Below are positions 36,343 to 63,975 of a stretch of DNA of 64,000 nucleotides, piece after piece. The notes below the pieces were generated by a model. The model was not told the DNA's origin. It made no database searches and was given only the letters and a program-made list of their open reading frames with translations. Each line of letters opens with the position of its first letter. The stretch's first letter is position 1. The stretch covers positions 6,221-70,220 of the forward strand of contig CAZYYO010000004.1 in the NCBI GenBank assembly GCA_964650965.1. Reading direction: 5' to 3'. The translations under genes and the position numbers were made by a program. Source of the DNA: an uncultured Lachnospiraceae bacterium (GTDB taxonomy: Bacteria; Bacillota; Clostridia; Lachnospirales; Lachnospiraceae).

Positions 36343-36756
36343 ATGATTAAGAACAAAGCTGTAAGAGATGAAGTGGTGAAGGCCGCTGCTAAAACAGAAG
36401 CTGCAACTGCTGCTGCAAAAAAAGAGGCCGTAAAGGCTGTGGCAAAAGCTAAGGAAGAAACAACAAAAATCACGAAAGCTGCAGAAGAAAAAGCTGATAG
36501 TGCAAAGGCTGCTGCAAAAACAGTGAAAAAGGTTGTAAAAAAGAAAGCTGCTGGCCCTAAGACAGAGATTTATCTTCAGTTTGCCGATCGGGAATATACC
36601 AACGAATCCGTTATTAAAATGGTAAAAGAAGTATGGACCAAACAGATGAAAAAGAAGATTGGAGATATGAAGACACTTCAGGTATATGTAAAGCCCGAAG
36701 AGTTCGCAGCTTATTATGTTATCAATGGAGATGTTGTTGGACGTGTAGAGCTGTAA
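36343..36756 (+). CDS. Lys/Ala-rich small protein, unknown function
   Basis: Start set at MIKNK after AAGGAGG. N-terminal K/A-rich low-complexity half and a conserved-looking C-terminal half (EIYLQFADREY...YYVINGD). Confidence 0.55.
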   Translation: MIKNKAVRDEVVKAAAKTEAATAAAKKEAVKAVAKAKEETTKITKAAEEKADSAKAAAKTVKKVVKKKAAGPKTEIYLQFADREYTNESVIKMVKEVWTKQMKKKIGDMKTLQVYVKPEEFAAYYVINGDVVGRVEL

Positions 36757-49654: not shown

Positions 49655-49700
49655 AGCTTTTTTGAGGGAAGAAGATGGATTCCATCTTCGAAAAGGGGTA

Positions 49701-49770
49701 AGGTCTCCTGTAACTATGGTACCAGGATTTGGGGAAATCCTGGAAGAAACCATATTGCAGGGGACCTTTT
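49701..49770 (+). terminator. large intrinsic terminator after the DUF1667 gene
   Basis: AGGTCTCCTGTAACTATGGT...ACCATATTGCAGGGGACCT outer helix with an inner CCAGGATTT-gggg-AAATCCTGG, followed by TTTT. An extended -10 (TGATATAAT, 49772-49780) follows directly. Confidence 0.7.
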
Positions 49771-49855
49771 ATGATATAATGAGTGCAAGAAAGCCATGGT
49801 GAGCTTGCTCACCTTTGGCGACAACAAACGCGATTCTTTAAATGCTACGTAAATT

Positions 49856-50088
49856 GAGGATTTGTGCAGTTAATATTGCTTCTTCTTGGATACCAGAAAT
49901 AAGATATTCTAAGTATTCCTGGTTTCATTATGCATAGTGTGACGCAAGCGGCTTAAATTCGCCATCCATGGCTCAGTTAAGCCTTTCACAGACATCGTGT
50001 CTGTGAATTGCTGGTTGCTGAAAGGAATACTAAGAATATCTAATTCCTTATATAAGGCGAAGAATCAATACCAACTGCACAAATCCTC
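49856..50088 (+). repeat. long foldback element, copy 1 (74-nt conserved core 49941-50014)
   Basis: Basal arms GAGGATTTGTGCAGTT (49856-49871) / AACTGCACAAATCCTC (50073-50088). Proximal arms 49902-49920 / 50023-50041. The core matches 63830-63903 at 70 of 74 positions. Confidence 0.8.
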
Positions 50089-63598: not shown

Positions 63599-63743
63599 AT
63601 CATTTACCTCTTTTCCGTGGGCATCGGTGTGATGCTTTTTTACTGGGTCAGACGTAGTATGTCTGTCGTTGGTACGTCTGTCGTAGTAAATGTATCATGT
63701 TTCGGGATTGGTGTCAAGGGGGAGTTTTTTGGGAGTGGACGGC

Positions 63744-63975
63744 AGCGGGCTGCACCGCCCCTGGTTTCCTTTGTTGGATTGGGAAATAAGGTATTCTAAG
63801 GATTCCTCGCGGTAGGTGGGGAAGGGGGAGACGCAAGCGGCTTAAATTCGCCATCCATGGCTCAGTTAAGCCTTTCGCAGACGTCCTGTCTGCGAATTGC
63901 TGGGAGGAGAGAGGAATTCTAAGAATACCTAATTTCCGGCATCAGGCAAAGAAAACCAGGGGTGGTGCAACTCGC
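63744..63975 (+). repeat. long foldback element, copy 2 (74-nt conserved core 63830-63903)
   Basis: Basal arms 63751-63773 / 63947-63969 (21 Watson-Crick pairs, 1 G-T, 1 mismatch). Proximal arms 63789-63808 / 63911-63930. Outer limits are approximate. Confidence 0.8.

Follow-up and report, generated by a model that had tools for sequence, protein, structure and literature searches.

The TwoAYGGAY RNA motif as the probable centre of a dispersed palindromic foldback repeat in Lachnospiraceae

Is a long inverted repeat whose copies differ by compensatory changes the gene of a selected RNA, or can its base pairing be upheld by other means? The question is raised by a stretch of 64,000 nucleotides (nt) from an uncultured Lachnospiraceae bacterium (assembly GCA_964650965.1, contig CAZYYO010000004.1, positions 6,221 to 70,220), referred to below as the window, which holds two copies of a foldback element: copy 1 at 49856..50088 (233 nt) near glpP and copy 2 at 63744..63975 (232 nt) near padR. 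A preliminary description, made from the letters of the window, had taken copy 2 for a plus-strand RNA structure tied to the neighbouring operon and had set it apart from mobile repeats. We found that both copies are fresh instances of a catalogued motif, TwoAYGGAY RNA, and that the motif belongs to a family that is itself a dispersed multicopy repeat. In our judgement the known motif is probably the centre of a palindromic foldback repeat, about 230-410 nt long, in which complementarity between the arms is upheld in a largely symmetric way.

A known RNA motif within a long foldback

A scan with Rfam 15 assigned both copies to TwoAYGGAY RNA (RF01731) on the minus strand and over the whole of the model (positions 1-168/168). 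The match of copy 2 covers 63775..63944 with 112.8 bits (gathering score 43, E = 2e-19), and that of copy 1 covers 49888-50055 with 129 bits against the same gathering score. The motif was found in 2010 by comparative genomics (Weinberg et al.) and judged to be a probable RNA with neither a cis-regulatory nor a riboswitch role, and the supplement of the discoverers describes its closing stem P1 as "often very large (e.g., 24 base pairs)" (PMC2864571). A tandem G.A in one of its stems has been remarked upon, and the sole functional proposal, offered by Gardner and Eldai as a hypothesis, is that its two GGA loops sequester CsrA (PMC4333381).

In the core of the repeat, a short junction stem bears two small hairpins whose loops are of the GGA type. 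In copy 2, core hairpin 2 (63839..63872, minus strand) has a 15-position stem with tandem G.A/A.G and C.U mismatches and the loop AUGGAU, while core hairpin 1 (63874..63896, minus strand) has a stem of 9-10 base pairs (bp) and the loop AGGAC, which is AYGGAY short of one base with the GGA kept. Loop 2 is AUGGAU in copy 1 as well, and its loop 1, ACGAU, is without GGA. Outward from the core, an internal loop that is asymmetric and poor in G leads to the conserved proximal stem, in which some mismatches are fixed, and this in turn to a complementary copy-specific block and the outer motifs. The large internal loop of copy 2 (63809..63829) is C-rich and G-poor on the minus strand, its plus side being the G-rich bulge noted earlier. 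The arms, listed without a strand, pair 63774..63808, a conserved TTAGnnnTTCTTA-type module, with 63911..63946 in the proximal stem, and 63751..63773 (TGCACCGCCCCTGGTTTCCTTTG) with 63947..63969 (CAAAGAAAACCAGGGGTGGTGCA) in the basal stem, which lies outside the Rfam model and whose low-coordinate arm contains the family outer-arm motif TGCAC and a copy-specific block. In the window copies about 55 pairs close the structure. Copy 2 ends 25 nt before the end of the window (64000), and DNA was seen up to that point.

The base-level comparison of the two copies bore out what had been described, with qualifications on the wobbles and on the basal stems. A repeat finder joins them as a 124-nt direct repeat with 85% identity, and their overall lengths are nearly the same. 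The cores differ at four positions, two of them forming the compensatory change cAcagac/gtctgTg to cGcagac/gtctgCg in core hairpin 1 (A-T to G-C, or A-U to G-C in RNA) and two lying in a loop; in the proximal arm AGATATT/AATATCT became AGGTATT/AATACCT (A-T to G-C) and one T-A pair became G-T. The basal stem of copy 2 has 21 Watson–Crick pairs, one G-T and one mismatch, the latter a C-A. That stem had been called dissimilar from its counterpart in copy 1, and indeed the two do not align; both nevertheless hold the outer motif TGCAC(A/C)A, on opposite arms.

We searched contigs from one genome per species with a degenerate pattern drawn from the positions that are invariant in the family. The search gave at least 118 loci; about 85 of the listed matches are true members and the remainder are high-GC chance matches that lack the first hairpin. 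All copy numbers are lower bounds, calls of open reading frames (ORFs) are mechanical, and the family counts given here and below are drawn from related copies with no phylogenetic correction. Among the matches listed, members occupy at least 81 loci in 43 genomes, nearly all of them Lachnospiraceae, and a single genome holds at least seven loci and at least nine copies. A set of 2.9 million viral contigs yielded one chance match only, and plasmids yielded no match to the pattern. The short first loop of the window copies defines a subtype that makes up 44 of the 77 distinct cores in the family sample, with ACGAT, AGGAC and ACGAC accounting for 42 cores and CGGAT and AGGAT for one each. Loop 2 reads AUGGAU in 49 of the 77, whereas GGA is missing from loop 1 in 27, copy 1 among them; about 45 of the 77 cores have the tandem GA/AG at hairpin-2 positions 9-10, and so do both window copies. 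We also considered a small ORF starting from the conserved ATG in loop 2 and rejected it, as its length varies from 4 to >50 codons and is not conserved.

The long enclosing helix is present in nearly every member, and the basal stem is thus a general property of the family rather than an oddity of copy 2. We measured the foldback by aligning the 5' flank to the reverse complement of the 3' flank with a free offset, the internal loop being asymmetric, and obtained a median score of 91 versus 11 for shuffled flanks, the highest control reaching 22. The total span in relatives has a median of 297 nt and ranges from about 208 to 414 nt, with two short exceptions. Alignments within genomes showed a common layout of the arms: a conserved proximal stem is followed by a copy-specific block of about 16-45 nt and then by outer motifs that recur across genera, for example TTGGCAAATTGCACAAA and GGGTGTCAAAAGG. 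Modules are present or missing as wholes, in both arms alike. The seemingly unrelated blocks of paralogous copies are diverged homologues, about 65% alike by eye, whereas their cores are identical or nearly so, five of six copies in one genome having the same core, and their proximal stems are very similar. The outer motif TGCAC(A/C)A sits in copy 2 as in most family members and in copy 1 on the opposite arm, an arrangement found in full in only 2 of 74 copies (copy 1 and L110) and in part in 2 more. The flipped motif would fit an earlier inversion that turned the core around with respect to the outer arms, something template switching is known to bring about.

Several further features were seen among the relatives. 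The longest members (L022, L029, L096, L062, L066, L014, L090 and L115) end in a cross-genus module (GGATTCGGGTGTCAAAAGGTAC...). Through it, each end of the element carries an outward-facing TTGACA hexamer, an arrangement known from insertion sequences that make hybrid promoters; in the loci examined this module occurs almost exclusively as arms of TwoAYGGAY foldbacks. Foldbacks also occur in head-to-head pairs (L011 5866-6400; also L041, L070 and L111) with a gene-free gap of about 65-600 nt, which is about 115 nt in both L011 and L070. Many contigs end in or beside an element (L004, L005, L013, L020, L055, L056, L076, L078, L085, L097, L098, L116, L118 and L120), L120 (Logan SRR8925773) being the only other contig that encodes the exact GlpP of the window. 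Such breaks fit with a repeat or palindrome disrupting short-read assembly.

Co-evolution of the arms and the question of strand

The pairing of the arms is maintained and not accidental, as had been argued from the two window copies. Within a copy, 87-93% of the arm positions lying 50-70 from the core are Watson–Crick paired, while the identity between copies there is only about 29%. We compared 18 closely related pairs of copies event by event, requiring at least 84% identity in both arms, since a threshold of at least 70% let in non-homologous pairs. Both partners of a base pair had changed in 91 cases, compared with 20.1 expected if the two arms evolved independently. Watson–Crick pairing was restored in 69 of these double changes, 37 of them transitions and 32 transversions, and GC-to-CG flips were common among the compensated changes. 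Orthologous copies tell the same story: where the flanks were 86-87% identical, the copy-specific block was shared at about 93%, a G-C to T-A double transversion included, and in a more distant orthologous pair all 5 of the 5 differences within a 16-nt stretch were exactly compensated. In a consensus structure computed from 80 copies, 36 of the 41 pairs show changes in both partners. Arm substitutions thus did not prove random with respect to pairing, the result that the preliminary description had named as one that would defeat its claim.

Helices selected as RNA show many G.U and few A.C pairs, and their compensation proceeds mainly through G.U intermediates. The covariation of the arms is without this wobble signature: wobbles are scarce and divide about equally between the two strands. 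Counting isolated mismatches inside solid helix only, we found 34 G.U and 44 A.C in the family arms read on the Rfam strand, and 20 G.U and 18 A.C when the arms were oriented by co-directional neighbour genes. The core hairpins, leaving out the loop-closing positions, gave 13 G.U and 12 A.C among approximately 1,770 stem positions. Over the 41 consensus pairs, the alignment cells comprised 3028 Watson–Crick, 49 G.U and 33 A.C, G.U amounting to about 1.5%. The raw totals of transition mismatches had a 2:1 bias toward the strand opposite to that of Rfam, which was discarded as it disappeared once isolated mismatches within helices were counted; it came from misalignment of loops and ends in C-rich flanks.

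The plus-strand assignment had leaned on G-T pairs that would be C-A mismatches on the minus strand. One basal G-T does exist, but the basal mismatch of copy 2 is a C-A on the plus strand and hence a G-U on the minus strand. The stem of copy 2 therefore has one wobble for each strand, and the two A-C of the copy 1 basal stem on the plus strand are two G-U on the minus strand, so that the wobble argument cancels within the window. Neither do thermodynamic z-scores tell the strands of copy 2 apart: the plus strand folded at -126.3 kcal/mol (z = -11.7) and the minus strand at -112.0 kcal/mol (z = -12.05), 0 of 200 shuffles being as good in either case. The plus fold is thus 14 kcal/mol better in copy 2, whereas in copy 1 the minus fold is better by 8 kcal/mol.

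The features that do distinguish the strands are modest cues, and they point in the same direction. Minimum-energy folds retained the core hairpins more often on the Rfam strand than on the other (48 elements against 16, p = 0.002). In copy 2, 100% of the core pairs were retained in the fold of the minus strand versus 45% on the plus strand, where the G-rich bulge invades hairpin 2 and destroys it. On the Rfam strand the internal loop is poor in G on both of its sides (G 0.10-0.11, C 0.29-0.35), and just 3' of the foldback C-runs were found in 15 of 71 copies compared with G-runs in 2. The stems of the Rfam model contain 115 isolated mismatches of transversion type, the fixed mismatches of the proximal stem. 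The tandem G.A, the C.U, the fixed mismatches, the G-poor loops and the C-runs cannot arise from a process that acts equally on both strands. With Rfam placing both copies on the minus strand and the wobble counts showing no bias, the plus-strand assignment was not sustained; the sequence cues weakly suggest that the minus strand is the one that matters when the element is single-stranded.

Genomic setting

The setting of the copies is that of a dispersed repeat. Of the copies, 57 have called ORFs to either side; the flanking genes of these are co-directional in 39, convergent in 15 and divergent in 3, and the 39 co-directional cases divide into 22 with genes antisense to the Rfam strand and 17 with genes in the sense orientation. 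In 70 copies no sigma-70-type promoter was found at a steady distance on either strand, the weak sites, 6 and 5 in number, being scattered, and neither window copy has a terminator-like site. The 81 loci, inspected over up to 8 kb, revealed no recurrent neighbour such as a transposase, a recombinase or csrA beyond common housekeeping families, and no insertion sequence or transposase family that could be the parent recurs at these loci. No target-site duplication was detected: the longest flanking direct repeats, of 1-4 nt, equal those of a displaced control, although a 2-nt duplication is possible. The copies are dispersed, intergenic, in either orientation and mostly downstream of genes, as is typical of REP- and ERIC-like repeats. 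Like miniature inverted-repeat transposable elements (MITEs), they have terminal inverted repeats and occur in many copies, though a target-site duplication and a parent element were not seen. A cis-regulatory leader or riboswitch would be expected to stand upstream of one conserved class of genes, always placed and oriented alike, and this is not what the copies show. They likewise lack the promoter and terminator of their own expected of an independent gene for a small RNA (sRNA) such as CsrB or RsmZ.

The two operons of the window give the same picture. A gap of 43 nt separates copy 1 from glpP downstream of it, within a 477-nt spacer between co-directional plus-strand genes. All 13 of 13 relatives of glpP from metagenomes lack a TwoAYGGAY element upstream of the gene, and those that are syntenic, which are distant relatives, have an upstream spacer of 40-80 nt without a hairpin. 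A search for empty sites at the strain level with the exact GlpP returned one 2.5-kb contig broken inside the element, and with the exact PadR nothing. On the side of padR, the best match to a sigma-70-type promoter of the operon (TTGACA, 17 nt, TACATT; 63717-63689, minus strand) sits between copy 2 and padR, which, if it is truly the promoter of the operon, puts copy 2 outside the padR leader. The promoter, terminator, orientation, neighbour and glpP results fit an extragenic palindromic repeat that is dispersed through the genome, and not an operon-specific regulator, and the proposed link to padR and glpP was not upheld. For the window this means that the hairpins near the two genes are ordinary copies of a known repeat.

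Some details of the surroundings are recorded here for their own sake. At 63689-63725 (minus strand), the -35 box of the promoter match for the padR operon falls within a stretch, CTTGACACCAATCCCGAA, that resembles the outer-arm module TTTTGACACCCGAATCC and lies 27 nt outside the paired foldback. This stretch could be what is left of an outer arm, contributing a -35 box that faces outward, in which case its partner would fall past the end of the window. Between this promoter match and the padR start codon (63640-63690) are direct and inverted repeats, GTAGTATGTCTGTCGT and GGTACGTCTGTCGTAGTA, that look like operator sites for a PadR-type repressor. The 200 nt between copy 1 and the upstream 121-aa gene (49655-49855) contain three more hairpins (GAAGATGGATTCCATCTTC; CCAGGATTTGGGGAAATCCTGG; CCATGGTGAGCTTGCTCACCTTTGG), have no Rfam match and are absent from the syntenic relatives, with their spacers of 40-80 nt. 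Elsewhere in the window, at 36391-36523, a family of 34-nt direct repeats (AAAACAGAAGCTGCAACTGCTGCTGCAAAAAAAG and variants) with a spacing of 27-42 nt is probably a repetitive alanine/lysine-rich coding stretch unrelated to the foldback.

Explanations of the repeat and comparison with known systems

What process could keep arms of free sequence complementary with so few wobbles? Template switching homogenises the arms of inverted repeats, can produce multibase compensation in one event, and may invert the spacer and expand the repeat (PMC8794818, PMC8604942, PMC13100816). On the reading of the element as a foldback repeat, the complementarity of its arms would be upheld mainly by such a strand-symmetric process, the replication machinery switching template between imperfect inverted-repeat arms. 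A switch would fix a change or mirror it in the other arm in one step, and selection for the hairpin would then filter the products; slow compensation through G.U in a plus-strand RNA would not be the route. Any activity of the element would come with read-through transcription from a neighbouring gene, giving a long hairpin RNA that might act as a determinant of processing or stability by analogy with ERIC and Correia elements. The minus-strand version could additionally present its two conserved loops to a putative binding partner. ERIC and Correia are MITE-like hairpins known as RNase substrates and as determinants of RNA processing and stability.

Several observations weigh against this interpretation. 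Transcription, its strand and any processing are deduced from sequence, and the homogenisation by template switching is read from the symmetry of the arms and from substitution spectra rather than observed. Equal numbers of G.U and A.C would also be expected if selection favours a perfect duplex or acts on both strands. The tandem G.A, the C.U and the U.U of the proximal stem have not been erased, so homogenisation cannot be the sole force and some strand-specific selection must be at work. No mobilising enzyme, no target-site duplication and, in most genomes, no burst of near-identical copies was found at the loci examined. Identical cores within one genome alongside mid-stem blocks only about 65% alike call for either conversion among paralogous cores or strong constraint, and the counts, coming from related copies, are not phylogenetically independent.

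A more specific version, which we put forward tentatively and hold to be less likely than not, is that TwoAYGGAY, rather than being chiefly an sRNA gene, marks the centre of a so far undescribed class of foldback DNA repeat of Lachnospiraceae, reaching about 410 nt and carrying conserved outer modules. Replication template switching would keep its arms complementary, and its asymmetric two-hairpin core would be bound, as single-stranded DNA or as RNA, by a putative protein that maintains or spreads it. Searching the literature for a Lachnospiraceae MITE of such kind returned nothing relevant, and the papers searched gave no account, for this family, of foldbacks some 300 nt long whose arms are modular, of dispersed-repeat behaviour or of covariation lacking a wobble signature.

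Among the alternatives, the one that survives best, and which we still regard as doubtful, is a genuine trans-acting sRNA expressed from the minus strand, the one annotated in Rfam. Its long stem would serve as a processing stalk or stabilising helix and its GGA loops would sequester a dimeric RNA-binding protein, CsrA for example, in line with the proposal of Gardner and Eldai. The Rfam strand and the heavy covariation speak for it, as do the conserved and strand-specific tandem G.A and C.U, the G-poor internal loops and the better-kept core hairpins. The second loop is AUGGAU in most cores, copy 2 has GGA in both loops, and GGA-containing hairpin loops are recognised by CsrA (PMC13443453). 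Against it, neither a promoter nor a terminator holds a conserved position, and with a random orientation to the neighbours read-through would supply the sense RNA only about half the time. The absence of GGA from loop 1 in 27 of the 77 cores, including copy 1, and the absence of an independent transcription unit weaken the idea of a CsrA sponge for the short-loop subtype. An RNA helix under selection would seldom have so small a share of G.U, about 1.5% of the pair cells, and at least nine diverged copies per genome with arms of more than 100 nt are unlike the known Csr/Rsm sponge RNAs.

The reading of the preliminary description, in which a plus-strand RNA acts in cis on the padR and glpP operons as an RNase III substrate or protein scaffold, is in our estimate very unlikely. 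It could draw on the better plus-strand fold of copy 2 with its two G-T pairs checked there, on the position of copy 1 upstream of glpP between plus-strand genes, and on the MITE-like hairpins such as ERIC and Correia that serve as RNase substrates. Copy 1 folds better on the minus strand, where its basal wobbles also lie, and the family shows no wobble bias by either the Rfam strand or the gene-sense strand; the plus fold of copy 2 sacrifices hairpin 2; no gene association is conserved, 0 of 13 glpP relatives, syntenic loci included, having the element; and the best padR promoter match falls between element and gene.

We hold it for equally improbable that a short mobile element, comprising the core and the proximal stem, inserted into the tips of pre-existing hairpins and that the basal stems derive from the targets, an outcome that the preliminary description had named as contrary to its claim. 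The idea accords with the copy-specific basal and mid-stem blocks, with the near-identity of cores and proximal stems inside a genome whose copies differ farther out, and with whole modules that are present or absent on both arms together. Yet the syntenic empty sites upstream of glpP in distant relatives show no pre-existing hairpin in their spacers of 40-80 nt, and the copy-specific block is flanked on its outside by the cross-genus motifs TTGGCAAATTGCACAAA and GGGTGTCAAAAGG, of which the one tested occurs almost only in element arms. The arms reach up to 170 nt, far beyond natural terminator hairpins, the blocks of paralogs are diverged homologues, and a target-site duplication is lacking.

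Least plausible of all, and close to negligible, is a programmable hairpin whose copy-specific duplex would be a guide- or spacer-like sequence processed to small RNAs against phages or other nucleic acids: it has in its favour a perfectly paired block of free sequence bracketed by conserved motifs and a 22-nt exact match of the copy-1 block (49866-49887) to one AT-rich IMG/VR virus on four contigs (L134-L137), inside an apparent coding sequence, but as an AT-rich 20-mer that match is at chance level (an estimated 0.1-0.5 hits or so expected), the copy-2 block and two GC-balanced blocks of other elements have no viral match, the outer arms of 21 other elements, their copy-specific blocks included, and both window basal stems have no phage match at E <= 1, there is no plasmid match and no second match of the blocks in the window, and the blocks are vertically inherited at ordinary evolutionary rates with no associated nuclease gene.

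The preferred reading, of a foldback repeat around a known motif, can be set beside four known systems. TwoAYGGAY as described shares with the window copies the two hairpins, the junction stem, the tandem G.A, the big closing stem and the taxa (Clostridia, gut). The window copies differ in belonging to a subtype with the first loop one base short, in a closing helix that reaches further than the 168-nt model (232-233 nt here and up to 414 nt elsewhere) and in outer arms that are modular and partly conserved. The motif has been an orphan since 2010, and its foldback setting, repeat behaviour and covariation lacking a wobble signature would alter how it is studied and annotated.

Sponges of the CsrB/RsmZ type have GGA in short hairpin loops; in TwoAYGGAY two such sites would be spaced to suit a CsrA dimer, as has been proposed for it (PMC4333381). 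Here, in contrast, there are only two sites instead of many, one of them without GGA in about one-third of the cores; an own promoter and terminator were not found, the element is multicopy, and its stem measures at least 100 bp.

A parallel in behaviour is with the ERIC/IRU repeats of enterobacteria, the Correia elements of Neisseria, REP/BIME, and the BOX/RUP repeats of streptococci. Those, too, have many copies in intergenic positions, mostly within operons or just after the 3' end of a gene, lie in either orientation with no promoter of their own, form long imperfect palindromes, vary in presence between relatives and are likely active only when co-transcribed. At the loci examined here we found no target-site duplication, parent transposase or RAYT, and the copies, far from being near-identical, are old and have diverged. 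Those repeats are also without the non-palindromic, conserved and covarying two-hairpin core of the present element.

Mutagenesis by template switching at quasi-palindromes, finally, is a mutational mechanism and not a functional system, and it leaves the conserved core and the fixed mismatches unexplained. It does predict homogenisation of the arms, mirrored insertions and deletions, inversion of the spacer, as in the flipped motif of copy 1, and expansion of the arms, as well as compensation in one step in which transversions arise as readily as transitions. The repeat offers RNA bioinformatics a natural case for a current question, that covariation taken as proof of a selected RNA helix can arise from, or be aided by, template switching at the level of DNA in inverted repeats.

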